Of a stretch of DNA of 64,000 nucleotides, positions 3,210 through 62,498 are shown in pieces. Position 1 is the first letter of the stretch; each line of letters begins with the position of its first letter. This DNA is from Rhodothermales bacterium (GTDB lineage: Bacteria; Bacteroidota; Rhodothermia; Rhodothermales; JANQRZ01): the NCBI GenBank assembly GCA_965215165.1, contig CBDCCX010000006.1, positions 2,350,959 to 2,414,958 on the forward strand. Reading direction: 5' to 3'. The notes under the pieces are model-generated. The model was not told the DNA's origin and made no database searches. It saw only the letters and a program-made list of their open reading frames with translations. A program made the translations under genes and the position numbers.

Positions 3210-3283
3210 GGGCTCTTAGCTCAGTTGGTTAGAGCGCGTCGTTGACATCGACGAGGTCACTGGTTCGAATCCAGTAGAGCCCA
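3210..3283 (+). tRNA. tRNA-Val (anticodon GAC)
   Basis: 74-nt cloverleaf folded by hand. Acceptor stem GGGCTCT/AGAGCCC, D arm GCTC..GAGC, anticodon stem CGTCG/CGACG with loop TTGACAT, T arm ACTGG-TTCGAAT-CCAGT, discriminator A. CCA is not encoded. Confidence 0.95.
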
Positions 3284-3305
3284 CAGAAAGCCCATCGCCC
3301 GATTT

Positions 3306-3376: not shown

Positions 3377-5377
3377 ATGCAGATCACGCTTCCCGACGGC
3401 TCCGCCCGCGACCTCCCCGACGGGAGCAGCGGCCACGACCTCGCCCAGGCCATCTCGGCCGGCCTCGCCCGCAACGCCCTCGCCGTGACGGTCGACGGGG
3501 CCGTGCGCGATCTGCACCGACCCCTCCCCGACGGCGCGACCGTCAGCATCCTGACCTGGGACGACGCCGAGGGCAAGGCTGCGTTCTGGCACTCCTCGGC
3601 GCACCTCCTGGCCGAGGCGCTCGAAGCGCTCTACCCCGGCGTGCAGTTCGGCATCGGCCCGGCGATTGAGAACGGGTTCTACTACGACGTCGACCTCAGC
3701 CGGACCGACGTCGACACGCTCTCGCCCGACGACCTCGAGGCCATCGAGGCCAAGATGAAGGAGCTGGCGAAGCAGGACAACCGCTACGAGCGCCGCGAGG
3801 TCTCGAAGGCCGAGGCGCTCGCCTACTTCACCGAGAAGGGCGACGGCTACAAGATCGAGCTGATCGAGGAGCTTCAGGACGGGACCATCACGTTCTACCA
3901 GCAGGGCGACTTCGTAGACCTCTGCCGGGGACCGCACATCCCGAGCACCAAGCTGATCAAGTATCCCAAGCTCCTGAACATCGCCGGGGCGTACTGGCGC
4001 GGCGACGAGTCGCGGCCCCAGCTCACCCGCCTCTACGGCGTCAGCTTCCCCAAGCTCTCGATGCTCGAGGAGCACCTGGAGCGCCTAGAGCTGGCCCGGC
4101 AGCGCGACCACCGCAGGCTCGGGCGCGAGCTCGGCCTGTTCATGTTCTCGAACCGGGTCGGCCCCGGCCTGCCGATGTGGCTGCCGAAGGGAGCGGTCCT
4201 GCGCGAGACGCTCGTCGACTTCCTCAAGGAGGAGCAGCTTCGGCGCGGCTACCAGCCGGTCGTCACCCCGCACATCGGGCGGCTCGACCTGTACAAGACG
4301 AGCGGGCACTACCCGTACTACGCCGAGAGCCAGTTCCCGCCGATGTTCGAGCGCTCGGCCGGCGAGGCCCCGGTGCTCCGGCCCGAGGAGGCCAACGAGG
4401 GCATCGTCGGCGACGACCGCGAGGGCTACCTCCTCAAGCCGATGAACTGCCCGCACCATACGCAGATCTACGACCACGCGCCGCACTCGTACCGCGACCT
4501 CCCGGTGCGCCTGGCCGAGTTCGGGCAGGTCTACCGCTTCGAGCAGTCCGGCGAGCTCGGCGGGCTGACGCGCGTGCGCGGCTTCACCGTCGACGACGCC
4601 CACATCTTCTGCACGCCCGAGCAGGTCAAGGACGAGTTCAAGGACGCCATCGACCTCACGATGACGGTCCTGCGCGCGCTCGACTTCGCCGACTTCACCG
4701 CCCAGGTCTCGCTCCGCGACCCGGCCAACACGGCGAAGTACATCGGCAGCGACGCGCAGTGGGAGACCGCCGAGGCCGCCGTCCGCGAGGCCGCCGCCGA
4801 GATGGACCTCGAGACCGTCGAGGAGCTCGGCGAGGCGGCGTTCTACGGGCCGAAGCTGGACTTCATGGTCCGCGACGCCCTCGGGCGCGAGTGGCAGCTC
4901 GGCACCGTGCAGGTGGACTACAACCTCCCCGAGCGCTTCGACCTGACCTACACCGACGAGCACGACGAGCGCGTCCGCCCGGTGATGATCCACCGCGCGC
5001 CATTCGGCAGCCTGGAGCGGTTCATCGGGGTGATGATCGAGCACACCGGCGGCGACTTCCCGGTCTGGCTCGCGCCCGTGCAGGCTAAAGTCCTCCCCGT
5101 CTCGGACGCCTTCAACGGCTACGGGCGCGCCGTGCTCGATCAGCTCCGCGCCGCCGGGCTCCGTGTCGAGACCGACGAGCGGAGCGAGAAGGTCGGCCGC
5201 AAGATCCGCGACGCCGAGGTGCAGAAGACGCCCTACATGCTCGTCGTAGGCGCGAAGGAGGAAGAGGCCGGCTCGGTCGCCGTGCGCCGCCACGGCGAGG
5301 GCGACCGAGGGGCCGTTCCGACCGCCGAGTTCATCGAGCAGATTAAGGCCGAGATCGACGAGGAACTCGGCGGCTGA
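3377..5377 (+). CDS. thrS: Threonine--tRNA ligase
   Basis: 666 aa from the ATG at 3377. It opens with the canonical MQITLPDGS TGS-domain start and carries class II motifs and an anticodon-binding domain (FHSSAHLLA, MNCPHH, RVRGFTVDDAHIFC, HRAPFGSLERF). Confidence 0.95.
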   Translation: MQITLPDGSARDLPDGSSGHDLAQAISAGLARNALAVTVDGAVRDLHRPLPDGATVSILTWDDAEGKAAFWHSSAHLLAEALEALYPGVQFGIGPAIENGFYYDVDLSRTDVDTLSPDDLEAIEAKMKELAKQDNRYERREVSKAEALAYFTEKGDGYKIELIEELQDGTITFYQQGDFVDLCRGPHIPSTKLIKYPKLLNIAGAYWRGDESRPQLTRLYGVSFPKLSMLEEHLERLELARQRDHRRLGRELGLFMFSNRVGPGLPMWLPKGAVLRETLVDFLKEEQLRRGYQPVVTPHIGRLDLYKTSGHYPYYAESQFPPMFERSAGEAPVLRPEEANEGIVGDDREGYLLKPMNCPHHTQIYDHAPHSYRDLPVRLAEFGQVYRFEQSGELGGLTRVRGFTVDDAHIFCTPEQVKDEFKDAIDLTMTVLRALDFADFTAQVSLRDPANTAKYIGSDAQWETAEAAVREAAAEMDLETVEELGEAAFYGPKLDFMVRDALGREWQLGTVQVDYNLPERFDLTYTDEHDERVRPVMIHRAPFGSLERFIGVMIEHTGGDFPVWLAPVQAKVLPVSDAFNGYGRAVLDQLRAAGLRVETDERSEKVGRKIRDAEVQKTPYMLVVGAKEEEAGSVAVRRHGEGDRGAVPTAEFIEQIKAEIDEELGG

Positions 5378-5403
5378 CGGGCACCGCCGAGTCCGCTTAC
5401 GAG

Positions 5404-5955
5404 CTAGAACCGCAACGGGACGGCAACACCCACCTGCACCTGCTCAACGCCGCGCCGGCCGAGGACCCGCACGACGGTATGCACCGCATCCGTGCGCCCG
5501 AGCAGAGCGCCGGCTTGGAGGTGGGGGACCTGCACCCCGAACACCGGTCCCTCATCGGGCTGGTTAGCCGATGAGGCGAAGTCGTTTCCCTGTTGGAAGC
5601 GTACACCGAGGCCACCGAAGAGTGCGACACGTTCGGCCACTGGATGCACATAGCTCGCGTCGAAGACGACCCCATAGTCGAGGTCGGATTCGCGCCTATC
5701 CCTGATGCTGATCTCGCCCGTCACCGGGTCTTCGACCTGGCGACCGACAGTGACGCGGGTGTGGGTAAGCTCGGCGGCGTGGACTCCGACGAGTAGACGG
5801 CCCCACCTGACGTTCGCGGCGAAGTCTGCGGCGACGCCGTGCGAGTGGGCGAGCTGCGGGGAGACGTAAGCGGCCGACGCGCTCAGCGAGACGTGGGGCT
5901 GGGCGAGGGCGGGTGCCGCGATGAGAACAGCGGCGGCGGTGAGGATCGTTTTCAT
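5404..5955 (-). CDS. Small outer-membrane beta-barrel protein (porin-family-like)
   Basis: 183 aa. Signal peptide MKTILTAAAVLIAAPALAQ, an alternating beta-strand pattern, and a C-terminal ...VAVPLRF ending in Phe. Confidence 0.6.
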   Translation of the reverse strand: MKTILTAAAVLIAAPALAQPHVSLSASAAYVSPQLAHSHGVAADFAANVRWGRLLVGVHAAELTHTRVTVGRQVEDPVTGEISIRDRRESDLDYGVVFDASYVHPVAERVALFGGLGVRFQQGNDFASSANQPDEGPVFGVQVPHLQAGALLGRTDAVHTVVRVLGRRGVEQVQVGVAVPLRF

Positions 5956-5989
5956 GGTTCGTGACGAGGAAGCGTTGAGGGTGGCGCAG

Positions 5990-7144
5990 CTAGCGCGTCC
6001 ACCCGAGAGAGTCGGGATCAAAGTTGCGCACCGGCACCATCGCGCTGCGGGCGTAGCGGGCGGTGTAGCCACCGAAGATGCCGACGGCGTCGCTCTGCTC
6101 CTTCGGGAGCACCTGCCCGCTGGGAGAGACACGGAAGACGTTCGAGATGGACGGGAAGTACATTGTATCTCGGTCCGCGACGACAGCCGCCGTGTTCCAC
6201 TGCGCCTGCGCCCATGGGTCTCCGTCGACGATGCTGTACTCGTAGTCCTCGGGTGCGTAGTAGCGCGAGAGCTCCGGGCTGAGCTGGTAAAGTCGGAGGT
6301 AGAGATCATGGAAGTAGACGAGCGGGTCAACCGAAGATTCGTACCAAGCTAGCGCAGGACCGATATCACTAAAACTGGGTGTGAATACAAAATAGAGTGA
6401 TCCCATACGGAGATAGTCACCCCGGTCTTCATGCGGAAAACTCTCGTCAGACTGGAGACCGAAAATGGCTCGGTCGGCAGTAAGCGAGCGGTTGTACCCG
6501 AACACCGTCACGACAGCCTCTTCGTCTGCTTTCCATTCGATAGGCAAGATTCCACCTTCGCCACGATACCCGCTCCGGTCATCCGGCTCCAGTTCCACCG
6601 GCACCCGGAAGGTGTCCGGCACCGCCCACTCGGCAAGACCGGGCAGCGTCGTCTCCGCCGTATAGCGACGACCATCGGCGAGTGTCACGTCGAGCCGGTA
6701 GCTCCCGTGTGGAACGCGGACCAGTTCCTCGTCGAGGTCGCCGTAGACGCCGCGCCGTTCGTGTTGGAACCGGACGGTCTGCTCGCCGGCCTGTCCAAGC
6801 GGTCCGGTGATGCTCACCTCTGCCGTGTTATCCGGGTGCGGGCGAAGCTGAAGGTTCCGAAGCTTCATTCCCACCTGACACCACTGGATCGGCATCCACA
6901 TCTCTTCGTTCGGCTTGTGCTCGCGGTCGGCGAAGAGTTGGTAGTTGAAGTCAAGCGGATCGGAGAGTCGGCCGACGTAGACTTGGGTGTGGTGGAACGA
7001 AGTGTCGGGTGAAGCTTCGAGCGTGGAGACGATGAAGACCGTAGAGTCGGGGACGAGCTTCGTCGTCCAGGTTGGAATGGGGGCCGTGGTATCGCACCCC
7101 CCGAGAAGGAGGCCCAGCAAAGCGAGGGCGAGGGCAGTACGCAT
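5990..7144 (-). CDS. Lipoprotein, DUF4249-like
   Basis: 384 aa. Lipobox LLLGGCD. The C-terminal GIFGGYTARY motif is reminiscent of the Bacteroidota DUF4249 lipoproteins that accompany outer-membrane receptors. Confidence 0.5.
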   Translation of the reverse strand: MRTALALALLGLLLGGCDTTAPIPTWTTKLVPDSTVFIVSTLEASPDTSFHHTQVYVGRLSDPLDFNYQLFADREHKPNEEMWMPIQWCQVGMKLRNLQLRPHPDNTAEVSITGPLGQAGEQTVRFQHERRGVYGDLDEELVRVPHGSYRLDVTLADGRRYTAETTLPGLAEWAVPDTFRVPVELEPDDRSGYRGEGGILPIEWKADEEAVVTVFGYNRSLTADRAIFGLQSDESFPHEDRGDYLRMGSLYFVFTPSFSDIGPALAWYESSVDPLVYFHDLYLRLYQLSPELSRYYAPEDYEYSIVDGDPWAQAQWNTAAVVADRDTMYFPSISNVFRVSPSGQVLPKEQSDAVGIFGGYTARYARSAMVPVRNFDPDSLGWTR

Positions 7145-7232
7145 GGTAGGCAGCAGGCAACCGTGGGAAGGTGAACAGGCCAGCCGCTCGGTCGCTCATT
7201 CTGACCGAGCGGCTGGCTCCAGCAGTGAGAGG

Positions 7233-7848
7233 CTAGATCGTGATGCTCTGCTTCGTGAACGAGTACCGCAGCCCGTAGCTGTCGGTTGCATAGACGATGG
7301 TCCCGTTAATCGTGCGGCTGTTCACCGTCGTGGTGTTCACCCGCCGGATGCCTGACTGGGTGAACACGTCATCGCTCGAGACGAAGGCGTGGTTGTTAGC
7401 GTCGAGCTTGGTGTAGCGCGTCTCGAACCCACCGGTGCTGAAGTTGATCGTGCGGATGTTGCCGCGCCAGTCGCCGCTGCGCCGGCTGAGGTGGTTCACG
7501 CCCCAATCATCTTCGTTCATATACGCACGGTAGTAGGTATTCGAAGACGTGAGTTGAACGACAGGGAAGTCGTGTGATTGATATACCGGTCGGCACCGTG
7601 TTGGACCTTGGACGTAGTAGTCACAGTCGTAAAACAACCCAGCTCCGAAAGGATAGTCTGTGCCAGCATAGTTCACGTCTGCCGCACGGAACCAGAGCAC
7701 TTGGTTGTACGCCCACGTGTGCGGATTCAGCGTGTTCGCACTACCATTCTCGGGGTTGTGTCCAGAAACAGTCCAAGCGGCGTTGTCGACCGGCGAGAAG
7801 AATGAGGCCGGCGCAGAGACTGGCGACAGATGCTTTGATGTACGACAT
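7233..7848 (-). pseudogene. Secreted protein of unknown function; signal peptide and mature part are in different frames
   Basis: The ATG at 7848 encodes MSYIKASVASLCAGLILL, and that frame then stops after 35 codons. The 155+ aa body (7233..) is open upstream with no ATG, and it becomes contiguous with the signal peptide after a single-nucleotide shift near 7790-7800. Confidence 0.4.
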
Positions 7849-7974
7849 GGATGTTTGACCCCGGAGGGCCCGAAATAGTGGAGTGATTCCCCGAAGGGCG
7901 GGGCGTCACACCAAGAGTAGCCACGCCGCTAATGGTGGCATAGTGACAGGTGTAACGACCTGCCATGACACCTG

Positions 7975-8637
7975 TCACGAATTGTCGGCGTGCTCGTCCT
8001 TCGGCCCTAGCCCATGCTGCCACGCCCATAGAATCGCTTCCCCCCTGCTCTTGACGCAAATCCTCTCGTACAGTGCTGACACCCGGTTCCGCACGGTTCC
8101 TTCTGCGAGGTGGAGGCGCTCGGCGATGCGCTTGTTGCTGTAGCCCCGCGCGAGCAAACTTATGGTTTCGGATTCCCCCGGGCTCAATGGAAGCTCCAAC
8201 GGCCGTGCCTCTAGCACCTTCCTGACAGCCTTGAAGAGGTCAGACCGGCTTCGCCGCCAGTCCCCTTCGGCTACGGCCTGCACTTTTTCCATGAGCGACT
8301 CGGGCGCTTCACTCGCTCCCACGCATCCGGCGACGTTGAGCGCCAGCAGATCGGCAGCCTCCGATACGCTACGGACCGTCTGAACGACGAGCACTTTGTT
8401 AGGGGGCAGTCCGGCTCGCTCCAGCCTTGCCAGCATCCCTGCCCAGTCTTCTCCGAGCATATCGACGATAGCGAGACTGCATGGACTGCCCCCGAGGGCT
8501 GGCAGGTCTCGTCCTTCCCCAGTCATTTCCTCAAGTAGCTCCACTGGGCGCGTGCCGTCCGCGTCCTCCAGCACCTTGAACAAACCGACTTGGAGGACGG
8601 AGGGCCGAACAGCTACTCCGACTAGAATCTCGCTCAC
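7975..8637 (-). CDS. LuxR/FixJ-family transcriptional regulator with a degenerate receiver domain
   Basis: 220 aa with a GTG start. The C-terminal HTH (LSPGESETISLLARGYSNKRIAERLHLAEGTVRNRVSALYERI) is present. The N-terminal domain aligns to NarL-type receivers, but the acidic DD pocket is replaced (ILVGVAVRP). Confidence 0.75.
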   Translation of the reverse strand: MSEILVGVAVRPSVLQVGLFKVLEDADGTRPVELLEEMTGEGRDLPALGGSPCSLAIVDMLGEDWAGMLARLERAGLPPNKVLVVQTVRSVSEAADLLALNVAGCVGASEAPESLMEKVQAVAEGDWRRSRSDLFKAVRKVLEARPLELPLSPGESETISLLARGYSNKRIAERLHLAEGTVRNRVSALYERICVKSRGEAILWAWQHGLGPKDEHADNS

Positions 8638-8710
8638 TTCTTTACCCCCCCGAGCCCCACTCGGCTTGAAGCTCTTGGATTGAACGTTCCTGTTCCATCT
8701 CTAACACACT

Positions 8711-8743
8711 CTGGTTTCTAATATCTGGTTTCTAATATACCAG
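8711..8743. promoter_or_regulatory. Perfect tandem 14-mer (CTGGTTTCTAATAT x2) followed by ACCAG, upstream of the LuxR gene
   Basis: Read directly from the sequence in an AT-rich stretch 74-106 nt upstream of the GTG at 8637. The final ACCAG is complementary to the repeat's CTGGT. Confidence 0.4.
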
Positions 8744-8775
8744 ACGCGAACCCTACCCGAATATAACCCTTCCGC

Positions 8776-9054
8776 GTTTCAGACGCTTTCAACGCCTACG
8801 CCCGGTCGGTCGCCGAGACGCTCCGCGCCGCCGGGCTGCGGGCCGAGCTGGACGAGCGGAGCGAGAAGGTGGGCCGCAAGATCCGGGACGCCGAGGTGCA
8901 GAAGACGCCCTACATGCTCATCGTCGGGGCGAAGGAGGCCGAGGCCGATTCCGTCGGCGTCCGTCGGCGGAGCGAGGGCGACCGGGGAGCCGTCCCGACC
9001 GCCGCCTTCGTCGAGCAGATCAAGGCCGAGATCGACGAGGCGTTAGGGCGGTGA
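8776..9054 (+). pseudogene. Displaced 3' remnant of thrS (codons 575-666 only)
   Basis: 92 codons plus a stop, colinear with thrS 5099..5377. By hand alignment, 74 of 92 residues are identical. There is no 5' part, and an in-frame TAA lies at 8764..8766. Confidence 0.85.
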
Positions 9055-9101
9055 GTACCCCCCGTTTCGCTTGCGGTCACTACGCTCCCTGCTACGCGAA
9101 A

Positions 9102-9126
9102 CTGTCCCCCTCGCCGAGGGGGACAG
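9102..9126. terminator. Perfect 11-bp-stem hairpin between the thrS remnant and the convergent fabF
   Basis: CTGTCCCCCTC-gcc-GAGGGGGACAG. Confidence 0.5.
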
Positions 9127-9180: not shown

Positions 9181-10446
9181 TCACGCCTCGAACTTGCGGA
9201 AGACGAGCGTCGTGTTGTGGCCGCCGAAGCCGAAGGCGTTGGACATCGCCACGTTGACCTCGCGCTCGGCGGGCTCGTTGAACGTGTAGTTCAGGTCGCA
9301 GCGCTCGTCGGGCGTCTCGAAGTTGATCGTCGGCGGGATGCGGTCGCGCCGGACGGCGAGGATCGAGGCGATGGCCTCGATGGCCCCGGCCGCGCCGAGG
9401 AGGTGGCCGGTCATGCTCTTGGTCGACGACAGGTTCATCTCGTAGGCGTGCGCGCCGAAGACCTTCTTGATGGCCTCGGTCTCGGCCACGTCGCCGAGCG
9501 GGGTCGCGGTGCCGTGCATGTTGAGGTAGTCCACGTCCTCGGCCTCGAGCCCGCTCGTGTCGAGCGACATCTGCATGGCGAGGCGCGCGCCCGCGCCCTC
9601 GGGGTGCGGGGCCGTCAGGTGGTAGGCGTCGGCGCTCATGCCGAAGCCGGTCAGCTCGGCGTAGACCGTCGCGCCGCGCGCCTCGGCGCGCTCGAGGCTC
9701 TCGAGCACGAGGGCCCCGGCCCCCTCGCCCATCACGAAGCCGTCGCGCGTGGCGTCGAACGGGCGGCTGGCCGTGGCCGGCTCGTCGTTGCGGGTCGAGA
9801 GCGCGCGCATGGCGCCGAAGCCGCCGACGCCGATCTTGGTGATCGGGGCCTCGGTGCCGCCGCAGACGACGGTGTGGGCCATGCCGTTGCGGATCAGCAT
9901 GAAGGCGTCGCCGATGGCGTTGTTGGAGGTCGCGCAGGCGCTGACGGTCGCGTAGTTCGGCCCCTGGAAGCCGTGGCGCATCGCGATCAGGCCGGGCGCG
10001 ATGTCGAGGATCATGTAGGGCACGAAGAACGGCGAGAGGCGGCGCGGGCCTTGCTCGTGGAAGACGATGGTCTGGTCCTGGAAGAGCTTCATGCCGCCGA
10101 TGCCCGAGCCGAAGACGACCCCGACGCGCTGCTTCTGCTCCTGCGACATCGCCGCGCTGTCGAGGCCGGCGTCGGCGAGGGCCTGGTCGGCGGCCACGAG
10201 GGCGTACTGCGTGAAGGCGTCCATCCGGCGGGCCTCCTTGTGGTCGAGGTAGTCGGCCGGGTCGAAGCCCTTGAGCTCGCAGGCGAACGTCGTGGCGAAG
10301 TCCTCGGTGTCGAAGTAGGAGATCGGGGCGGCCCCGCTCTCGCCACGCATCATGCCCTCCCAGAAGGCCTCGGTGGTGAGGCCGAGCGGGGTGAGGGCAC
10401 CGAGGCCGGTGACGACGACGCGGCGGCCGGGGGGGAAAGCGTCCAT
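9181..10446 (-). CDS. fabF: Beta-ketoacyl-ACP synthase II
   Basis: 421 aa. [15 protein letters not shown], an active-site context with ATVSACATS, and HGTATPLGD...GHLLGAAG. It lies directly downstream of acpP. Confidence 0.95.
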
Positions 10447-11094: not shown

Positions 11095-12264
11095 ATGGCC
11101 TACCTCTTCACCTCCGAATCCGTCTCCGAAGGCCACCCGGACAAGGTCTCCGACCAGATCTCCGACGCCCTGCTCGACGCCTTCCTCACCGACGATCCCC
11201 ACAGCCGCTGCGCCATCGAGACGCTCTGCACGACGGGCCTCGTCGTCGTCTCGGGCGAGGTCACGAGCGAGACCTACGTCGACGTGCAGGAGGTCGCCCG
11301 GCGGACCATCGAGGAGATCGGCTACACCGACCCGGCGCTGCGCTTCGACGCCCGCTCCTGCGGCGTGCTCGTCACCATCCACGAGCAGAGCAGCGACATC
11401 GCCCAGGGCGTCGACGAGAACGCGGGCCTGGACCCGGACCAGGGCGCGGGCGACCAGGGCATGATGTTCGGCTACGCCACGAACGAGACCGACGAGCGGA
11501 TGCCGCTCGCGCTCGTCTGCGCCCACGGCCTGGTCAAGAAACTGGCCGAGATCCGCAAGGCCGGCGAGGCGATGCCCTACCTCCGGCCCGACGCCAAGAG
11601 CCAGGTCACGGTCGAGTACGGTGACGACCGCCGCACTATCCGCCGCATCCACACCGTCGTCGTCTCGACGCAACACGGCGAGGACGTGAGCCTGGCGCAG
11701 ATCGAGGCCGATGTCCGCGAGCACATCCTCCCGGCCGTCCTGCCTGCTCACCTGCTCGATGACGACCTGATCCTGCACGTCAACCCGACCGGCCGGTTCG
11801 TGGTCGGCGGCCCGCACGGCGACACCGGCCTGACCGGGCGCAAGATCATCGTCGACACCTACGGCGGCAAGGGCGCGCACGGCGGCGGCGCGTTCTCCGG
11901 CAAGGACCCCTCGAAGGTGGACCGCTCGGCGGCCTACGCCGCCCGCCACGTAGCCAAGAACCTGGTCGCGGCGGAGCTCGCCGAGGAGGTGCTCGTCCAG
12001 GTGGCCTACGCCATCGGCGTCGCTCAGCCGGTGAGCATCGACGTGACGACTTACGGCACCGGCGCGGTCCCGGACGCGGCGCTCGTCGCCGCCGTGCGCG
12101 ACACGTTCGACCTCCGCCCGAGCGCCCTCATCGAGCGGCTCGGCCTGCTCCGCCCCGTCTACCGCCCGACCGCCGCCTACGGCCACTTCGGCCGCGACGA
12201 GTTCGCGTGGGAGCAGCTCGACGCCGTCGACGCCCTGCGCGACGCCATCAGCGCGCACGCCTGA
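11095..12264 (+). CDS. metK: S-adenosylmethionine synthase
   Basis: 389 aa from the ATG at 11095. [52 protein letters not shown]. Confidence 0.95.
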
Positions 12265-12968
12265 TGGAACGCGCCTCGCTCCTGCCGGCCGCCATCCTCG
12301 CGCTCGGCCTCGTCGTAGCGGCGCTCGTCTTCGGGACGTTCTTCTACAACGCGCGTGACACGGGCGACACCGTGCAGACCGTCGGCGCGGCGACCGAGCT
12401 GTTCACCGCGGACGTGGCGAAGTGGCGGCTCGTGCTGATGCGCCCGACCGACCTCGACGGACAGCAGGCCGGCTACCGCGCGCTCGCCACCGACGTGCAG
12501 TCGCTCCGCGCCCAGCTTCGCGGCCTCGGCCTGCCCGACACCAGCGTCACTGTCCAGCCGCCGAGCGCGAACCCGACCTACGGCTACAACGGCACCCCGA
12601 CCGGCTACCAGGTCCAGCAGACCCTGTTCGTGGTCTCGGAGAACGTGGACGAGGTTGAGCGGCTCGCGCTCGACCCGGCGTCGCTCCAGACCGGCGGGGC
12701 CTCGCTCCAGTCGTCCTCGCTCGAGTATTTCTACTCCGACCTCGACCGGCTCAAGCGCAGCCTGCTCGCTCGGGCCACGGACGACGCCCGGGCGCGAGCC
12801 GCCGAGATCGTCGGGGCCGAGGTCGAGCACATGACGGCGGCGCGGGCGGGCGTCTTCCAAATCACCGAGCCGTACTCGACCGAGGTCAGCAGCTACGGGA
12901 TGCACAACACCGCGACCCGCCGGCAGGAGATCACCGTGACGGTCCACACGACGTTCGAGGTGGACTGA
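12264..12968 (+). CDS. SIMPL/DUF541-like membrane-anchored protein
   Basis: 234 aa. Its ATG overlaps the metK stop (TGATG). It has an N-terminal TM helix, and the overall composition resembles SIMPL-domain proteins. Confidence 0.55.
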   Translation: MERASLLPAAILALGLVVAALVFGTFFYNARDTGDTVQTVGAATELFTADVAKWRLVLMRPTDLDGQQAGYRALATDVQSLRAQLRGLGLPDTSVTVQPPSANPTYGYNGTPTGYQVQQTLFVVSENVDEVERLALDPASLQTGGASLQSSSLEYFYSDLDRLKRSLLARATDDARARAAEIVGAEVEHMTAARAGVFQITEPYSTEVSSYGMHNTATRRQEITVTVHTTFEVD

Positions 12969-13067
12969 CGGGACACGTTAAGAAGTCAACAATGCCGAAC
13001 CTGATGCTACCGGTCGCGTTTTTCCCATCTGACTCCGAAACCCCCGACCCAGAACCCCCGACCCGAC

Positions 13068-14363
13068 ATGGACCACAAAGAAGGACGCTACAAAGTCAAA
13101 GACCTGAGCCTCGCCGACGCCGGCCGGATGCGGATCGAGTGGGCCGAGAGCCGGATGCCGGTGCTGATGCGGATCCGCGACGAGTTCTCGAAGACCAAGC
13201 CGTTTGAGGGCTACAAGATCACCGGCTGCCTCCACGTCACCAAGGAGACCGCAGTCCTGATCGAGACCCTCGCCGCGTGCGGGGCCGAGGTCGCCTGGAG
13301 CGGCTGCAACCCGCTCTCGACGAACGACGAGGTCGCCGCCGCCCTCGCCGCCGGGCCGAAGGGCGACGGCAACGGGGTCGAGATCTACGCCTGGTACGGC
13401 CAGGACACCGACGGCTTCTACTGGTCCATCGACCGCACCATCGACACCACGCCCGACACGACGCTCGACGACGGGGCCGACCTCATCTTCCGCGTCCACA
13501 GCCAGTTCCCCGAGAAGGCCGAGGACATCATCGGCGGCTCCGAGGAGACCACCACCGGCGTCCACCGCCTCCGCGCGATGGCCGACGACGGCAAGCTGCT
13601 CTACCCCGTCTACGCCGTCAACGACGCCGAGACGAAGTGGGACTTCGACAACGTCTACGGCACCGGGCAGTCCACGCTCGACGGCGTGCTCCGCGCCTCG
13701 TCCGTGCTGATTGCCGGCAAGAACTTCGTCGTCGCCGGCTACGGCCACTGCGGGCGCGGCGTCGCGATGCGCGCCAAGGGCATGGGCGCGAACGTCATCG
13801 TCACCGAGATCAAGCCGACCGCCGCGCTCAAGGCCACGCTCGACGGGATGCGCGTGATGACGATGGAGGAGGCCGCCCAGGTCGGCGACATCTTCGTCAC
13901 CGCCACCGGCATGAAGGACGTCATCCGCGGCGAGCACTTCGTCAGCATGAAGGAGGGCGCGATCGTCTGCAACACCGGGCACTACGACGTGGAGCTGAAC
14001 CTGAAGGAGCTCGCCGAACTGTCGCAGGACACCCGCATGATCCGCACCGACAACCGCGAGTACACCCTCGACAACGGCAAGAAGGTCTACGTCCTCGCCG
14101 ACGGCCGGCTCGTGAACCTCGCCGCCGCCGAGGGGCACCCCTCCGAGGTGATGGACATGAGCTTCGCCAACCAGTTCCAGGCGCACCTCGCGCTGATCCG
14201 GGCGCACGAGGCGGGGGAAGAGATGCCCAACACGGTCCTCGACCTGCCCGAGGAGCTCGACCAGCAGATCGCGCGCGTGAAGCTCGAGACGATGGGGCTC
14301 GCCATCGACGCGCTCACCGACGAGCAAGTCGCCTACGCCACCGACTACTCGGCCGGCACCTGA
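13068..14363 (+). CDS. ahcY: Adenosylhomocysteinase
   Basis: 431 aa. KVKDLSLADAGRMRIEWAE, GCLHVTKETAVLIETL, VAGYGHCGRGVA, HPSEVMDMSFANQ. Confidence 0.95.
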   Translation: MDHKEGRYKVKDLSLADAGRMRIEWAESRMPVLMRIRDEFSKTKPFEGYKITGCLHVTKETAVLIETLAACGAEVAWSGCNPLSTNDEVAAALAAGPKGDGNGVEIYAWYGQDTDGFYWSIDRTIDTTPDTTLDDGADLIFRVHSQFPEKAEDIIGGSEETTTGVHRLRAMADDGKLLYPVYAVNDAETKWDFDNVYGTGQSTLDGVLRASSVLIAGKNFVVAGYGHCGRGVAMRAKGMGANVIVTEIKPTAALKATLDGMRVMTMEEAAQVGDIFVTATGMKDVIRGEHFVSMKEGAIVCNTGHYDVELNLKELAELSQDTRMIRTDNREYTLDNGKKVYVLADGRLVNLAAAEGHPSEVMDMSFANQFQAHLALIRAHEAGEEMPNTVLDLPEELDQQIARVKLETMGLAIDALTDEQVAYATDYSAGT

Positions 14364-14417
14364 GCCGATTTTAGATTGGCGACTGCGGAGTCTAGCTTGT
14401 CCGAGGTCCACAGACCG

Positions 14418-14452
14418 AGAGGGCCGTCTCGCACCGCGCGGGGCGGCCCTCT
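14418..14452 (+). terminator. Hairpin downstream of ahcY
   Basis: AGAGGGCCG ... CGGCCCTCT, a 9-bp stem with a 17-nt loop. Confidence 0.35.
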
Positions 14453-14857
14453 ATCGAGGCCCCGGAGCATCAGGCGACGGACTCCCGGTCGGTCCTCACC
14501 CTCTACTTCGCGGAGCCGATCGGGCAGAGGTGCCTTTCGCTTGCGCGCGTACGCGCTCGCAACAGCCGCCGGCGCGATCACCTCCTTGAAGAGATTCGCA
14601 AGCAGAGAGTGTTCACGGCCTCATCGACGTGGGGTGGGAGTTCGAGCGTGGGCATGGCGCGGGGGAAATGGAGAGGAGGCGTCAACGCTGCACCGCGCCG
14701 AAGGTACCGAGCGCGGAGAGAAGACCGGCTCGCACTGCGCGGAGCGGCTCTTCACCTCTTCGGGCAGATTCGGGCCGGCGCGCCGCGGGCGTATCTTCGG
14801 CGTCCGCCGCCACACGCCGACTGCGTGGATCAGAAAACCGTCCAGCGAGACCCTGAA

Positions 14858-16249
14858 GTGAGCCCGACGCTCGACGAGGCGCGAACCGACGACAGGGTGG
14901 AGCGGAGGAAGGTGAGGTCGTTCGCGCCGGCGGTTCTGCTCGTCGTGACGGGCTTGGCGCTGCTGCCGGGCTACCGCTACCACATCGGGATCGACGGCAT
15001 CTCGTACGTCTCGCTGGCCCGGTACTACGCCGAGGGAGAGCTGGGGCTGGCCGTCAGCGCGTACTGGTCGCCCCTGTTGCCGTGGCTCACGGCCCCGCTC
15101 GCCTGGCTGGGGGTGCCGCTGATCCCGGCGGCTAAGGTGGTGGCGCTGGCGTCGGGCGCGCTCGCGCTGGAGGCGCTCCGCCGGCTGCACCGGGCGGCCG
15201 GCACCCGGCCGGGGTCGGCGCTGGTCGTGAACATGGCCCTCGTGCCGTTTCTGCTGAACGCCGTCTTCCTGGGCGTCTTCGCAGACCTCGTGCTGGCGGC
15301 GGTCCTCGCGGGCTACCTCGTGGTCGTGCTCGGCGAGATGCCGGACGGGGTGCGGCGCGCGGGCGCGCGGGCGGGGCTGCTGGGAGGCGTAGCGTTTCTC
15401 TCCAAAGCCATCGCGCTCCCCTTCGTGCTGGCGCACCAGACGGCGCGCCTCGCGTGGCGCGTGCTCCGACGGCAACCGCTCCGGCCCGCGTTTGCGTTGG
15501 CCTGCCTCGGGGGGCTGGCCCTCGTCGTGGGCGTTTGGGTCGGCGTGTTGAGCGCGCACGAGGGACGCCCGACGTGGAGCACCGCCGCCTCGCACAACCT
15601 CGCGCTGGTGGCCCCGGAGTCGAAAGGCAACCCGATCCAGTTCGGCGGCCTCTTCGCGCCGCCGCACGAGGAGGCGGTGAGCGTCTGGGAGGACCCCAGC
15701 CGGCTCCCCGTCGTGGAGCAGCCGTGGCTGGACCACAGCCTGCCGGCCATTCTGCGCCGCGTCGGACAGAACGCGAGGCGGAACGCCCTCGAGACGTGGC
15801 GGACCCTCGCCGCCGAGGTGCCCGCGCTGGCGCTGTTGGGGCTGGGCGCGCTGTGGCTCCCCGCGCGCGTCGAGGCAGGATCGCGGCGGCGTGTGGCCGA
15901 GCGGGCCGCGCTGGCGGGCGCGCTCTTCGCGGCGGGCCACCTCGTGCTGTGGGTCGAGCCGCGCTATCTGTGGTTTCCGGTCCTGTGCCTCGCCCCGCTC
16001 GCCGGGGTAGCGCTCGACGCCGCGCGCAGGAGGCGGGGCGCGTTCCCTGCCGTGGCCCTCCTCCTCGTCCTGGGCACCGGGTGGCCCGCGGCCGAGGGGC
16101 TGGCGCTGCGGTGGCGCTCCGGCGAGCGCCTCCACGCGACGGGCGAGGCCGTCGCCGCCGTGCTCCCGCTGGACGGCCGGCGCGTAGCCTCTGCGGACTA
16201 TTGGCAGCGCTCGGCGATCCTGTGCCTCCAACTGGGTTGCCGGTACTAG
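14858..16249 (+). CDS. Polytopic membrane glycosyltransferase (GT-C / ArnT-PMT-like)
   Basis: More than 10 predicted TM helices, and an N-terminal region (DGISYVSLARYY...YWSPLLPWL) typical of GT39/GT83-type enzymes. The start is uncertain (GTG at 14858 or 14912). The upstream part of the track ORF (from 14609) is not membrane-like. Confidence 0.55.
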   Translation: MSPTLDEARTDDRVERRKVRSFAPAVLLVVTGLALLPGYRYHIGIDGISYVSLARYYAEGELGLAVSAYWSPLLPWLTAPLAWLGVPLIPAAKVVALASGALALEALRRLHRAAGTRPGSALVVNMALVPFLLNAVFLGVFADLVLAAVLAGYLVVVLGEMPDGVRRAGARAGLLGGVAFLSKAIALPFVLAHQTARLAWRVLRRQPLRPAFALACLGGLALVVGVWVGVLSAHEGRPTWSTAASHNLALVAPESKGNPIQFGGLFAPPHEEAVSVWEDPSRLPVVEQPWLDHSLPAILRRVGQNARRNALETWRTLAAEVPALALLGLGALWLPARVEAGSRRRVAERAALAGALFAAGHLVLWVEPRYLWFPVLCLAPLAGVALDAARRRRGAFPAVALLLVLGTGWPAAEGLALRWRSGERLHATGEAVAAVLPLDGRRVASADYWQRSAILCLQLGCRY

Positions 16250-16486
16250 GGCCTCCCGACGTCGGCGAGGCCGGGGCCGCTCCGTGACGAGCTGGTCGCC
16301 GAGGACATCGAGATGTTCGTGTCCTGGAGGGAGCCTCCTGCGGAGATCGTTGTCGCCTTCGGCTCGCCCCGGCACGTCGGCGAGGCCTACGTCTTCGATC
16401 TCACCGCTGGCGGCTCGGCGAGCGCGTCGCCGCCGTGATATACTCCACGACCGGCTTACCTCGTGCGCGCTCGTAGCCTCTCCCTC

Positions 16487-16723
16487 ATGGCATCCCCTAT
16501 TCCGGTTCCGATCCCTGCTATGGTCGCCGCCGTCGCCGAGGCGGTGCGGCCCCGGCGCGTCGTGCTCTTCGGCTCCCACGCCACGGGTGAGGCCGGGCCG
16601 GGGTCGGACGTAGATTTGCTCATCGTGGAGGACCGCCCCTTTCAGGACGAGCGCGCCTGCGCCGACGAGCTCGTGCGGGCCTGGGCGCTGATCGAGCATG
16701 TCAGCGCCCTGCTCCGAGATTGA
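16487..16723 (+). CDS. Nucleotidyltransferase (MNT-type) domain protein, short/truncated, no HEPN partner
   Basis: VVLFGSHATGEAGPGSDVDLLIVE is the minimal nucleotidyltransferase motif. The protein ends about 40 aa after it, and no HEPN-like ORF follows. Confidence 0.5.
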   Translation: MASPIPVPIPAMVAAVAEAVRPRRVVLFGSHATGEAGPGSDVDLLIVEDRPFQDERACADELVRAWALIEHVSALLRD

Positions 16724-16865
16724 AACCAAGAGCCGGGGCGCACACCGACGGCCAACAGGGTCAGCACGAGGGGTGCACCGATTCGCTCGTTGTGGCCCCC
16801 AGTCGAAAGTGGAGCGCCCGCTTCAGTCCTCGGTCGTTTCGGCGCTTAGCAGCGGTTGCCTACGT

Positions 16866-17348
16866 CTAGCGTTGCGGCGGGGCGGGGAAGCTGGCGCGGA
16901 GGGCGCGCATCGCTTCGATGTAGGCGTCGAGTCCGTCCACTTCCTTGCCGGCCTCGAACGTGACGCGCTTTTCCTCGTCCTCGCCTAGCTGCGCTCCGAC
17001 CCACTCGGCCCCGCCGTCGGCGCAGTCGGGGCAGCCGTACTGGGCCTCGGCACGGCGGAGAGCTTGGCGGTCGAGGGCGCGGTCGAGTTCAGCGCGCTCT
17101 GCCGCGCTGAGCGTACGGGTGTGGCGGACGTCCGGGACGGTCTCGCCGAAGCTCCAGCCGAAGTAGACCAGCGTCGCCGTTCGGCCGGCGACGGCCAACT
17201 CAGTGACGCAGTAGCCCAAGCACTCGCCGAAGCTGGTGCCGCTGAAAAGCTCGGGGCTCTCTACGGGGGCAGGCTCGTTTCGCTCGTCGCTCAGGAGCGA
17301 GCACCCGGCGAGCGAGAGGAGCAGGAGGACGAGCAGAAGGCGGTTCAT
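16866..17348 (-). CDS. Hypothetical lipoprotein
   Basis: 160 aa. Lipobox LLLLSLAGCS. Several paired Cys residues (CLGYC, CPDC). Confidence 0.55.
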   Translation of the reverse strand: MNRLLLVLLLLSLAGCSLLSDERNEPAPVESPELFSGTSFGECLGYCVTELAVAGRTATLVYFGWSFGETVPDVRHTRTLSAAERAELDRALDRQALRRAEAQYGCPDCADGGAEWVGAQLGEDEEKRVTFEAGKEVDGLDAYIEAMRALRASFPAPPQR

Positions 17349-59939: not shown

Positions 59940-60219
59940 GGAATACCTCGCGGTACTGGTGGTTGTGGACGTTCAACGGAGGAGCGGAGGCGGCTGCGTC
60001 GCTGACTCGGTGGAGCAGCCGGTTGGCAGACCGCTCCGCCGGTAGGAAACATACCAAACCGGCCTACGACCTTTGGATATTTGCACATGCGTCACAGGCG
60101 TAACGCCTCACCCACCAAGACACCCCCTCGCACTCACCATCCGGGTATCCCGGACGTGGCGCGCGTCCGCCTCCTGAAACCCGGCCTCCGAGGGGATGCG
60201 CGAGCACCAGAGGACAGCG

Positions 60220-60227
60220 TACCTTTG
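60220..60227 (+). promoter_or_regulatory. Candidate -7 promoter box TACCTTTG (TAnnTTTG) upstream of ptrB
   Basis: Exact match to the Bacteroidota sigma-A -7 consensus, 25 nt upstream of the ATG at 60252. Confidence 0.3.
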
Positions 60228-60251
60228 CGTCCCCTCGTCCTTCACACCGCT

Positions 60252-62390
60252 ATGCGCCTGCTCCACGCTCTGCTCTTCCTCGCCGCCATGCCCGCCCTTG
60301 CCCAGACCGCCCCGCCCGTCGCTGACGTCCGCCCGACCGAGCTGACGATGCACAGCGACACCCGCACCGACAACTACTTCTGGCTGAAGGAGCGCGACGA
60401 CCCCGAGGTGATCGCCTACCTCGACGCCGAGAACGCCTACTTCGAGGCCGAGACCGCCCACCTCGACGCCTTTGAGGACGCGCTCTTCGAGGAGATCAAG
60501 GGCCGCATCAAGGAGGACGATGCCGGCGTCCCCTACCGCCTCGGCGACTGGCTCTACAGCTACCGCTTCGAGACCGGCGAGCAGTACCCCGTCTACACCC
60601 GCCGCCCGCTCGGCGAGTTGGAGGCCGAGGTCGTCACCCTCGACGTGAACGCCCTCGCCCGGAACCACGAGTTCTACAGCGCCCGCGTCTCCGAAGCCTC
60701 GGTCAGCCCCGACGGCCGGACTCTGGCCTGGGCCGCCGACACGACGGGTCGCCGGCTCTACACGATCCGCTTCAAAGACTTGGAGACGGGCGAAATCCTG
60801 GGCGACGAGATATCCGCCGTGACAGGCAACTTCGCGTGGGCGAACGATAGCCAGACGTTCTTCTACAGCCGGCAGGACCCCGAGACGCTCCGCTCGGACC
60901 GCATCTTCCGCCACACGCTCGGCACCGACCCGGCCGATGACGTGCTGGTGTACGAGGAGACCGACGACACCTTCATCACGTATGTCGGCAAGACGACCTC
61001 GGACGCCTACCTCGTGATCGGCTCCAGCCAGACGCTCGCCACCGAGTACCGCATCATCCCAGCCGACGAACCCGCGACGGCCCCGCGCGTGCTCGTCCCC
61101 CGCGAGCGCGACCACGAGTACCACGTCGACCACCTCGGCGACCACTTCTACATCCGCACCAACCGGGGCGAGGGCGGCGGCAAAGCCGACAACTACCGCT
61201 TGGTCCGCGCGCCCGAGGACATGCCGGGCGTCGAGTATTGGGAGGAGGTCGTCCCCCACCGCGCCGACGTGCTCCTCGAAGACATCACGCTCTTCGACGA
61301 CTTCCTCGTGCTGAGCGAGCGCCAGGACGGCCTGACCCGGCTCCGCGTCCGCCCGTGGAACGAGCCGAGCGCCGAGCACTACGTCGCCTTCGACGACCCG
61401 GCCTACGTCGTCTACCCCGGCCAGAACCCGAACCCCGACACCGGCACGCTCCGCTTCGTCTACCAGGCGCCGACGACGCCCGCGACGACCTACGACTACG
61501 ACATGGCGACGCGCGAGCGGACCCTCCTCAAGCAGGAGCCGGTCCTCGGCGGGTTCGACTCCGGTGCCTACCGCGCCGAGCGGCTGTGGGCACCGGCCCG
61601 CGACGGCAAGCGGGTCCCGGTCTCGCTCGTCTACCGGAAAGACCGCTTCCAGAGAGACGGCTCGAACCCGCTGCTGCTCTACGGCTACGGCTCCTACGGC
61701 CACAGCATCGACCCCGGCTTCTCCTCGACGCGGCTCTCGCTGCTGGACCGCGGGTTCGTCTTCGCCATCGCCCACATCCGCGGCAGCCAGACGCTCGGGC
61801 GGGCGTGGTACGAGGACGGCAAGCTGCTCACCAAGAAGAACACCTTCACCGACTTCATCGACGCCGCCGAGCACCTCAAGGCCGAGGGCTACGCCGACCC
61901 CGCGCGCATGTACGCGATGGGCGGCTCAGCCGGCGGCCTCCTCGTGGGGGCGGTCATGAACATGCGGCCCGACCTCTTCGACGGCGTCGTGGCCCAGGTG
62001 CCCTTCGTGGACGTGATGACGACGATGCTCGACGACACGATCCCGCTCACCACGAGCGAGTACGACGAGTGGGGCAACCCCAACGACAAAGCGTACTACG
62101 ACTACATGCGCTCGTACTCGCCCTATGACAACGTGACCGCGCAGCCCTACCCGAACCTCCTCATCACGACCGGCCTGCACGACTCCCAAGTGCAGTACTG
62201 GGAGCCGGCGAAGTGGGCCGCCAAGCTCCGCGCGCTCAGGACCGACCAGAACCGGCTCTACCTCCACACCGACATGGGGGCCGGGCATGGCGGCGCGTCG
62301 GGCCGCTTCGACCGCTACCGCGAGGTCGCCCGCGACTACACCTTCCTCCTCGACCTCGCCGGGCTGACGGATACTGAATTCGGAAACTAA
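60252..62390 (+). CDS. ptrB: Oligopeptidase B / S9A prolyl-oligopeptidase-family serine peptidase
   Basis: 712 aa with a signal peptide. DNYFWLKERDDPEVIAYLDAENAY, catalytic GGSAGGLL, HDSQVQYWEPAKW, and GAGHGG near the C-terminus. Confidence 0.9.
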   Translation: MRLLHALLFLAAMPALAQTAPPVADVRPTELTMHSDTRTDNYFWLKERDDPEVIAYLDAENAYFEAETAHLDAFEDALFEEIKGRIKEDDAGVPYRLGDWLYSYRFETGEQYPVYTRRPLGELEAEVVTLDVNALARNHEFYSARVSEASVSPDGRTLAWAADTTGRRLYTIRFKDLETGEILGDEISAVTGNFAWANDSQTFFYSRQDPETLRSDRIFRHTLGTDPADDVLVYEETDDTFITYVGKTTSDAYLVIGSSQTLATEYRIIPADEPATAPRVLVPRERDHEYHVDHLGDHFYIRTNRGEGGGKADNYRLVRAPEDMPGVEYWEEVVPHRADVLLEDITLFDDFLVLSERQDGLTRLRVRPWNEPSAEHYVAFDDPAYVVYPGQNPNPDTGTLRFVYQAPTTPATTYDYDMATRERTLLKQEPVLGGFDSGAYRAERLWAPARDGKRVPVSLVYRKDRFQRDGSNPLLLYGYGSYGHSIDPGFSSTRLSLLDRGFVFAIAHIRGSQTLGRAWYEDGKLLTKKNTFTDFIDAAEHLKAEGYADPARMYAMGGSAGGLLVGAVMNMRPDLFDGVVAQVPFVDVMTTMLDDTIPLTTSEYDEWGNPNDKAYYDYMRSYSPYDNVTAQPYPNLLITTGLHDSQVQYWEPAKWAAKLRALRTDQNRLYLHTDMGAGHGGASGRFDRYREVARDYTFLLDLAGLTDTEFGN

Positions 62391-62468
62391 ACAAGAAACA
62401 TACCTCCTAATTTGTATATTCTCTAGCAAGAATGCGACTCTTTGACTGACCGATTCGTATAAAATAAA

Positions 62469-62498
62469 CGCCGCCACTCGCAAGAGCGAGCGGCGGCG
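62469..62498 (+). terminator. GC-rich hairpin inside the AT-rich tract downstream of ptrB
   Basis: CGCCGCCACTCGC-aaga-GCGAGCGGCGGCG, a 13-bp stem with one mismatch, flanked by A/T-rich sequence. Confidence 0.5.

Follow-up and report, generated by a model that had tools for sequence, protein, structure and literature searches.

A small genomic island without an integrase at the 3′ end of thrS in a Rhodothermales bacterium

Islands with tyrosine integrases target the 3′ ends of tRNA, transfer-messenger RNA (tmRNA), and protein genes, as exemplified by SGI1/MGI at trmE. Elements related to ICESt1 and ICESt3, which are located at the 3′ end of fda in Streptococcus thermophilus, are reportedly an example of cis-mobilizable elements (CIMEs) and of their accretion. 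The islands at ssrA of Dehalococcoides are said to be bounded by direct repeats of the gene end, to be arranged several in tandem, to encode an integrase of their own, and to have repeats of only about 20 bp. At the wzy locus of Salmonella Typhimurium, a 2.5-kb island without an integrase is located next to thrS, is flanked by 113-bp direct repeats, is excised as a circle, and can re-integrate (PMC12074656). Here, we describe a small island that lacks an integrase and is inserted at the 3′ end of thrS, the threonyl-tRNA synthetase gene, in a stretch of 64,000 nucleotides (hereafter the window) from a Rhodothermales bacterium (contig CBDCCX010000006.1).

Mosaic structure of the thrS 3′ end

The working thrS is located at positions 3377..5377 of the forward strand of the window, starts with ATG at 3377, and contains 666 codons and a stop codon; its product comprises the Pfam domains TGS, tRNA_SAD, tRNA-synt_2b, and HGTP_anticodon. 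A repeat search identified a direct repeat of 270 nt at 5094–5363 and 8771–9040, with a sequence identity of 83% and a spacing of 3677. Codons 575–666 of thrS (5099..5377, copy A) recur at 8776..9054 (copy B), and the two copies are identical in 74 of 92 residues and 227 of 279 nucleotides. Copy B is an open frame of 92 codons with a stop, is preceded by an in-frame TAA at 8764–8766, and does not have the 5′ part of thrS. Nevertheless, copy B alone matches the Pfam family HGTP_anticodon with an E-value of 2.3e-23. The 3′ end of thrS forms direct repeats, the left and right attachment sites (attL and attR), that bracket the insert, and the layout is equal at locus L184 and at loci L103 and L125 taken together. 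The space between the convergent genes thrS and fabF contains a hairpin (9102..9126) with a folding energy of −27.2 kcal/mol and a z-score of −5.0, which was matched by none of 200 shuffles. The stretch after the stop codon of the working thrS folds no better than its own shuffles. The same hairpin is kept after thrS in the closest relative, and the native hairpin of the window is now parted from the working thrS and positioned 3′ of copy B. These results agree with the first-pass annotation, a reading of the DNA letters alone, which had reported that codons 575–666 recur in the same orientation, that the second copy has no 5′ part and follows an in-frame TAA, and that the strong hairpin follows the remnant and not the functional gene.

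The closest relative, locus L081 (P0001; ThrS 94%, FabF 88%, and MetK 89% identical; 129-kb contig), has an empty site. The order there is thrS, the hairpin as in the window, and fabF-acpP-metK, which is the arrangement that the first-pass annotation had proposed to look for in close relatives. The native right-hand neighbour in the window, fabF (9181..10446, reverse strand), is 88% identical to the gene located directly after thrS in L081. The block between the two copies is compositionally foreign. The island (5403–8775) has a GC content of 0.613, the minimum among all 3.4-kb segments of the window (median 0.714), which belongs to a high-GC genome and has an overall GC content of 0.705. The GC content at third codon positions (GC3) is 0.70–0.79 in the island genes, 0.95–0.99 in thrS, fabF, and metK, and 0.91 in copy B. 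The earlier impression that stretches between the copies are richer in A+T than the flanks is thereby confirmed. Two observations had been named in advance as speaking against acquisition: an intact second thrS in relatives, and cargo genes that are universally syntenic and of normal composition. A second intact thrS was found in none of the relatives examined, and neither property holds for the cargo. In L083, the synteny of thrS and fabF is kept, and a glyoxalase gene and an Imm32 immunity-like gene lie between them (12007–12661), without a thrS remnant. In L082, thrS is followed by a peptidase M23 gene and others, also without a remnant. The thrS-fabF spacer is thus variable by more than one route.

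The crossover was mapped from informative sites and from the change in substitution rate, both relative to L081, the one close relative. Where the copies differ, L081 shares the bases of copy A as far as about 5272 and those of copy B from 5333 on, including the flank after the stop codon (maximum chi-squared of 22.6, reached by 0 of 20,000 permutations). Over the whole of thrS, the mismatch to L081 rises from 6.9% to 22.9% at 5273, with a 2-log-likelihood support interval of 5254–5308 and a log-likelihood ratio of 12.6. Codons 575–636 of copy A (5099..5284, forward strand) are 92–93% identical to L081, like the body of thrS, and their synonymous divergence (dS) of 0.17 compares with 0.21 for the gene body. 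Past the stop, copy A matches L081 at 12 of 22 positions, whereas copy B matches it at 22 of 24 and remains homologous to it across the hairpin as far as fabF. The ancestry of thrS changes at about 5273–5285 (codon 637), within the last approximately 30 codons; both 5099–5284 and the flanking DNA beyond about 9055 are native. The copies share one identical run of 33 nt (5210–5242), their longest, which is followed by informative sites that are still native, and the crossover zone contains at most 13 nt of uninterrupted identity.

The segment of working thrS beyond the switch (5285..5402, forward strand) comprises codons 637–666, the stop codon, and about 25 nt, and is the island-borne replacement tail on the attL side. 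Its distal part is closest to the island-side tails of L184 and L186, with 81–82% identity. The corresponding tail of copy B on the attR side (8962..9078, forward strand) again comprises codons 637–666, the stop codon, and about 25 nt, is continuous with the native flank, and represents the tail from before the insertion. Codons 575–636 of copy B (8776..8961, forward strand) are 80% identical to L081 and 82% identical to copy A, and contain no stops or frameshifts. Their dS to L081 is 0.59 (0.5–0.6 overall), and the ratio of nonsynonymous to synonymous divergence (omega) is 0.24. They carry the motif YARSVAE(T)L, which is common to P0002, P0007, P0009, and P0011 from other lineages of the clade, and the nearest sampled relative is just 85% identical. 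The piece 8776–8961 has no counterpart in any other remnant of the island family. The piece stems from the functional thrS of a different lineage and was carried along by the island.

The last 30 codons of thrS (5285–5377, compared with 11909–12001 in L081) have a dS of 0.8–1.1 whichever two of copy A, copy B, and L081 are compared, whereas that of the body is 0.2. The three tails are mutually distant even though the flank of copy B is native, which suggests that one of the lineages has had its tail replaced at least once more; the divergence of the pre-insertion tail in copy B from the empty-site relative hints at repeated replacement. Adding further relatives did not resolve the polarity of the coding tails, all of which are 71–82% alike. 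The claim of the first-pass annotation that an insert was acquired at the 3′ end of thrS is supported by the empty site in L081 and by the foreign composition, and the general principle that an element supplies a replacement 3′ end and displaces the old one to the far junction holds. However, its boundaries (5099..8775) have to be moved: the acquired DNA spans roughly 5285..8961, and the switch is at codon 637, not at codon 575. The DNA from 8776 onward, which had been taken for the displaced original, begins with the thrS fragment of the other lineage.

Shared junction, related islands, and cargo

The proposed core of the attachment site, CGCCGCCACGGCGAGGGCGACC, is located at 5285..5306 of the forward strand. 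The exact 22-mer occurs once in the window, inside an imperfect palindrome (5272–5309) that folds at −31.4 kcal/mol with a z-score of −4.0. In at least six related islands of other genomes, the thrS remnants start at this junction, which corresponds to 5284/5285 in the window. Among four kinds of locus, five remnants have their first base no more than about 3 nt from CGCCGCCAC (codon 637), and the DNA to the left of them is unrelated. In L087 and L125, TTTCCT is followed by the remnant start CCGCCGCCATGGCGAGGGCGACC, the form shared with L094 being a T followed by CCGCCGCCAYGGCGAGGGCGACC; both L094 remnants start with CCGCCGCCACGGCGAGGGCGACC after a T, and in L184 and L186 TATCT is followed by GCCGCCACGG. 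The decayed remnant of L093 starts at about the same motif and contains stop codons and G:C-to-A:T changes relative to the working tail of the same locus. As the DNA on the left of the junction differs among the loci, so do the right-hand neighbours, which are fabF in the window, phoU in L125 and L094, and a Na/Pi cotransporter in L184. Therefore, the islands are tied to the thrS tail irrespective of the order of the neighbouring genes. It appears that the insertions sharing the junction were independent events. Most of the 89 metagenome matches to the 22-mer are thrS genes of unrelated high-GC bacteria or chance matches, and only those in L103, L125, and L164 were informative. Matches to the 13-mer GGCGAGGGCGACC in L085 and L086 have no thrS similarity and were taken as chance.

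Homologues of the second cargo protein that are at least 56% identical are all encoded in a four-gene module of a regulator, a lipoprotein called X, a DUF4249-like lipoprotein, and a small barrel (contigs L087–L093, L103, L125, L164, and L184–L187). Wherever a flank is included in the contig, the module is located directly after the thrS tail, has a thrS-tail remnant on the regulator side, or both. In L103 and L125, two contigs from one metagenome, the attachment-site copies are about 125 bp long, about 95% identical, and extend about 27 nt past the stop codon. In L184, the first 58 nt of the copies are almost identical, and beyond them the working tail is richer in A/T-ending codons than the remnant. 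The window contains a single island, and tandem accretion at the attachment site is seen in L094, from the genome encoding P0007, which has two islands and two remnants (12066–17252). The order there is thrS, island, remnant 1, a DUF433/DUF5615 pair, remnant 2, and phoU. The L094 island encodes a different barrel (outer membrane protein), a glycine-zipper protein, an alpha/beta hydrolase secreted by the type IX secretion system, and a frameshifted homologue of the regulator from the window. The second islet of 0.65 kb contains the DUF433/DUF5615 (PIN-like) toxin-antitoxin-like pair, and remnant 2 is frameshifted by a 1-nt deletion.

The four genes of the island in the window are encoded on the reverse strand. 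Cargo gene 1 (5404..5955), an open reading frame (ORF), encodes a small exported protein with a signal peptide and the C-terminal residues VPLRF, which was read by eye as an outer-membrane beta-barrel. It has no Pfam match, and its homologues, which are 49–56% identical, are encoded at the equal position in L087, L091, and L184. Cargo gene 2 (5990..7144) encodes a lipoprotein with an LGGC lipobox. Its score against DUF4249 (PF14054) is 10.9 bits (E = 0.34), below the gathering threshold of 28.5 bits; only 24 homologues were found, and several of them, at 47–51% identity, carry PF14054. The protein is therefore a divergent DUF4249 relative and not a scored member of the family. The AlphaFold2 model of the protein is confident, with a predicted local distance difference test score of 90.6, and is mostly beta strand, its matches in the PDB are generic FN3 and Ig-like domains only, and the predicted fold may be read as tandem beta-sandwich domains.

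Cargo gene 3 (7233..7850) corresponds to the C-terminal third of lipoprotein X, which has 482–508 residues. In a tblastn search with the 484-residue X protein of L087, residues 300–485 matched 7787–7233 at 69%, and a three-frame translation placed the signal-peptide-like start (ATG at 7850) in another frame, one off. Judged from the reading frames, cargo gene 3 is probably a pseudogene; the stump with its out-of-frame start indicates that the island is already decaying here, or else reflects an assembly indel. Cargo gene 4 (7975..8637) encodes a LuxR/GerE regulator (Pfam GerE, E = 2.4e-11) with a putative, degenerate receiver-like N-terminal half of the NarL/FixJ type. Its remote homologues, at 29–38% identity and up to 94% coverage, are NarL/FixJ response regulators with PF00072, whereas Pfam detects no receiver domain in the protein itself. 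Homologues that are 53–71% identical adjoin the remnant in L087, L091, L094, and L184. PADLOC identified no defence system in the cargo and gave only a weak helix-turn-helix match for the regulator. Thus, the four minus-strand genes named by the first-pass annotation are present, with the barrel, lipoprotein, and LuxR-type regulator as it had described them; its "secreted protein" is the lipoprotein stump, and its DUF4249-like lipoprotein has a lipobox, with the DUF4249 assignment borne out by the homologues and not by the score of the protein itself.

The AT-rich spacer between the regulator gene and copy B (8638..8775, GC content 0.49) contains two tandem copies of TCTGGTTTCTAATA at 8710–8737, just upstream of the regulator gene, and is likely to be its promoter or operator region. 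The half-site GGTTTCTAA reappears as the palindrome GGTTAGAAACC at the equivalent place in L184 and L186 (about 4100–4195 in L184). A second conserved motif, CAAGCTAAYGAYYYGTAAC, is located about 50 nt from the junction in L087, L094, L184, and L186. The TCTGGTTTCTAATA/GGTTTCTAA and CAAGCTAAYGAYYYGTAAC motifs are likely to be operator or promoter elements, or possibly arm-type sites. A scan for consensus promoters and terminators found nothing, which says little for this phylum. The repeat search identified a perfect inverted repeat of 15 nt (GCCAGCCGCTCGGTC and GACCGAGCGGCTGGC, 7179..7217) between cargo gene 2 and the cargo gene 3 stump, which is probably an internal terminator of the island.

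Several observations were made beside these loci. Paralogous modules with 48–52% identity occur at the non-thrS loci L084 and L085, with GC3 near that of the host. L085 and L086, which come from one sample, both encode the identical DUF4249-like paralogue P0127. The product of the gene before it has 153 residues in one contig and at least 425 in the other (L085 9458–9919 and L086 2–1279), a short/long dimorphism like that of gene X in the window and L087. Palindromes resembling repetitive extragenic palindromic (REP) sequences, GTAGGGGCG...CGCCCCTAC, follow thrS tails or remnants in L091 (about 4150–4310), L094 (11995–12030 and 17260–17300), and L103 (about 1960–2040), and none is present anywhere in the window. 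The unrelated metagenomic contig L176 (GC content 0.72) contains at 216–428 a thrS 3′ fragment of codons ~590–660, 59% identical and without a 5′ part; therefore, remnants of the thrS end may also occur outside this clade. Directly upstream of thrS in L081 (8119–9825), a 74-residue Arm-DNA-bind_5 fragment, corresponding to the N-terminal domain of an integrase, and a gene for an AAA_14/DUF4143 ATPase resemble vestiges of a different element, at the place where the window has a tRNA-Val gene.

That gene, tRNA-Val(GAC), was identified by ARAGORN at 3210..3284 of the forward strand, just upstream of thrS. It is the sole tRNA gene of the window, is not the attachment site, and provides context only. 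The host belongs to a poorly studied group of Rubricoccaceae-like Rhodothermales. The ThrS of the window is identical (100%) to P0146, which is encoded on a contig of 3,503,168 bp, is 72–77% identical to those of Rubrivirga and Rubricoccus, and is more similar to those of a set of uncultured relatives. Exact-sequence look-ups with the ThrS and FabF of the window matched no recorded protein, the identity of ThrS to P0146 having emerged from a later comparison. When species-representative genomes were queried with ThrS, the best relatives were 72–74% identical and had neither the synteny nor thrS remnants. At the end of the window (61000–64000), there is a second low-GC stretch (0.60–0.63), which is probably another accessory islet cut by the window edge. 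It contains a ParE-family toxin gene (62800–63063, Pfam E = 6e-10) and a small ORF without a Pfam match (63601–63966), and is preceded by a gene read by eye as prolyl-oligopeptidase-like (60081–62390).

Proposed mechanism and alternatives

We propose, with a probability of about 0.6, that the insert is a small non-autonomous CIME-like island that was acquired horizontally and recombined at an attachment segment of about 120 bp in the thrS tail, with the recombinase provided in trans. The attachment site would extend from thrS codon 637 to about 25 nt past the stop codon, with the palindromic core CGCCGCCACGGCGAGGGCGACC at its left edge. A 3.68-kb circle may have undergone one reciprocal exchange with the chromosomal thrS at or near the core. 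The circle would have contained, in continuous register, foreign thrS codons 575–636, the core, the replacement tail with its trailer of about 25 nt, and the four genes. After the exchange, the tail copy of the island (5285–5402) would complete the ThrS frame, with the four cargo genes next to it, and the previous tail with the native hairpin and fabF would be displaced 3.68 kb downstream (8962 onward). The resulting attL would consist of the native thrS and the incoming tail, and attR of the foreign thrS fragment, the previous tail, and the native flank. The repeat has a length of 279 nt instead of about 120 nt, in this view because the incoming copy carried 186 nt of the thrS of its former host. 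One possible source of this piece is an aberrant excision in a donor that included the flank on the attL side; alternatively, it could derive from a different insertion at codon 575 in the donor, followed by transfer.

The recombinase would be encoded off the island and act in trans, by site-specific rather than RecA chemistry. In agreement with the earlier remark that the insert has no integrase, Pfam searches detected no recombinase domain in the four island products or in those of the related islands, nor in the 30 other ORFs of the window, a few inter-ORF gaps being outside the screen. No integrase-bearing element at the thrS tail was found among 187 loci or in the collections searched. 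The viral contigs of IMG/VR yielded nothing with the ThrS C-terminus or the 22-bp core, the phage collection searched with copy B yielded just unrelated thrS genes in prophage-region records, and the plasmid collection had no match to the island DNA. A literature search retrieved no description of the thrS 3′ end as an attachment site. Two kinds of island product were considered as enzymes and rejected: the regulator is not a hidden small serine recombinase, given its NarL/FixJ remote homologues, and a role of the lipoproteins in recombination is ruled out by their lipoboxes and the all-beta Ig-like model.

Several points weigh against the proposed mechanism. Neither a recombinase, nor a circular form, nor an element carrying the phage-type site attP was found in IMG/VR and the phage and plasmid collections. 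To account for the 186-nt piece of foreign thrS, a further event must be assumed for which there is no observation. The crossover was positioned with a single close relative; the coding tail of copy B is 79% identical to L081, no closer than that of copy A (77%), and the flank after the stop codon alone clearly marks copy B as native. Most of the related loci are short metagenomic contigs with hosts that cannot be placed. Finally, the absence of an integrase from every copy is also what a purely homologous spread would produce.

Such a spread is the alternative that survives best, and we consider it unlikely. It would involve one ancient insertion, after which related species took up chromosomal DNA and exchanged the cassette through RecA, the left homology arm being thrS and the right one the tail remnant. 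The junction would then be inherited, and no site-specific recombinase would act today. There is no recombinase in any copy, thrS is highly conserved and offers long homology, and the repeated attachment sites extend over about 120 bp, or 279 bp in the window. The wzy island of Salmonella, which has 113-bp repeats and no integrase, excises and re-enters by a mechanism that was left open between RecA and an integrase (PMC12074656). However, a double crossover would not put the switch points of both copy A and copy B in the same last ~100 bp of the gene, and it would leave the foreign thrS codons 575–636 on the right of the island unexplained. A site-specific enzyme is favoured over RecA because the switch coincides with the junction of the island family, because the exchange bypassed the 33-nt identical run (5210–5242) and took place in a zone with no more than 13 consecutive identical bases, and because the toxin-antitoxin islet of L094, which has unrelated flanks, shares the junction.

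A more far-reaching explanation, to which we give little weight, is that the thrS tail is a dedicated capture site, an integron-like platform in an essential gene that is run by a host-encoded recombinase off the island. It would take up small cassettes without recombinases, such as envelope modules and toxin-antitoxin pairs, stack them in tandem, and rewrite the ThrS C-terminus at each capture. If this were true, the divergent tails (dS of 0.8–1.1 compared with 0.2 for the body) would be the footprint of repeated capture and loss.

It is improbable that the island is ancestral to the clade and was inherited vertically, with L081 having lost it by deletion between the thrS repeats. Such a deletion would leave an equal mosaic, and the pattern of informative sites does not distinguish an insertion here from a deletion in L081; furthermore, the divergence of the island roughly tracks that of the visible host sequence (73–80% for ThrS, 67–78% for cargo 2). 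Nevertheless, in none of the hosts has the GC3 of 0.70–0.79 moved toward 0.96, the value of the host. Copy B is intact and foreign in its first 62 codons, with a GC3 of 0.91 and an omega of 0.24, whereas a neutral remnant of such an age would have decayed, as in L093 and in remnant 2 of L094. In addition, the islands adjoin thrS whatever is downstream (fabF, phoU, or the Na/Pi cotransporter), and L083 has other genes at the spot and no remnant.

The exact version of the first-pass annotation, with integration at codon 575, all of 5099..5377 borne by the element, and all of 8776..9054 being the displaced native end, is very improbable. It accounts for the sharp start of the repeat at 5094–5099 and 8771–8776 and for the native hairpin 3′ of copy B. 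However, 5099–5284 is as near to L081 as the rest of thrS (92–93%, dS of 0.17), 8776–8961 has a dS of 0.59, and all other remnants of the family start at codon 637. Integration at codon 575 could describe an earlier event in the donor lineage and not the event in this genome. A decayed second thrS, either a paralogue or an element-borne synthetase, of which copy B would be the final piece, is extremely improbable: copy B spans nearly the whole anticodon-binding domain and its codon usage looks functional, but no relative has a second thrS, its 3′ flank is the native thrS-fabF spacer, and the related remnants comprise just 30 codons.

Implications and comparison with described systems

The thrS tail, from codon 637 to just past the stop codon, is a recurrent insertion hot spot in Rubricoccaceae-like Rhodothermales, and the islands there form a family of very small elements that are mobile without a recombinase of their own. 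The scar in the window records two hosts, since the native gene, the incoming tail, and the thrS fragment of the former host can be distinguished. Therefore, the exchange point can be fixed to a few tens of bases, and the scar directly documents a transfer between species. Mobile DNA has repeatedly replaced the C-terminus of an essential synthetase, which matters for thrS phylogenies and recombination scans. The 22-bp core and the tail repeats can serve as a search key for more islands and, if it exists, for the missing recombinase. The finding would gain weight if a host recombinase services the site as a cassette-capture platform.

In functional terms, the insert belongs to the genomic islands that occupy the 3′ end of an essential gene and restore that end with their own sequence. 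It is by definition a CIME, in that attachment sites are kept and genes for recombination and transfer are missing; it may have originated by decay from an integrative and conjugative element (ICE) or an integrative mobilizable element (IME). Some decay has occurred, because one cargo gene is truncated. It cannot be counted among the integrase-bearing integrative elements because there is no integrase on the island. As in the present case, CIMEs are bounded by attL and attR, two copies of the conserved gene's 3′ end, lack integration and transfer genes, form tandem arrays with internal copies of the attachment site, as in L094, and restore the frame of the target with element-borne sequence (PMC5704250). 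In contrast to CIMEs, no parent ICE or IME with an integrase for the site was found, and all approximately eight copies lack an integrase. The locus also differs from the CIMEs at fda in that the target is the thrS tail, the host is a Rubricoccaceae-like Rhodothermales bacterium, and the copy in the window has extra target-gene sequence upstream of the core.

The islands at trmE, tRNA, and tmRNA genes resemble the one described here in that the identity of attP and the chromosomal site attB extends from the crossover to the gene end, the gene remains intact, and the old end is found at the far junction. The integrase gene beside the attachment site, which defines those islands, is absent here. 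With the ssrA islands of Dehalococcoides (PMC3146451), the present islands share the type of target, the 3′ end of a single-copy essential gene that is used repeatedly and site-specifically; unlike at ssrA, the repeats here are 120–279 bp long and lie within a protein-coding frame, and there is no integrase. The wzy island has in common with the island at thrS its small cell-surface cargo, long direct repeats, the lack of its own recombinase, and a mechanism that is open between RecA and an integrase acting in trans (PMC12074656). Its repeats are intergenic, upstream of thrS, and identical, and they do not rebuild a gene end; its excision was demonstrated experimentally, whereas for the present island a circular form is proposed from the sequence. 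In behaviour, the ssrA islands of Dehalococcoides and the wzy island of Salmonella are the nearest analogues of the island at the thrS tail.

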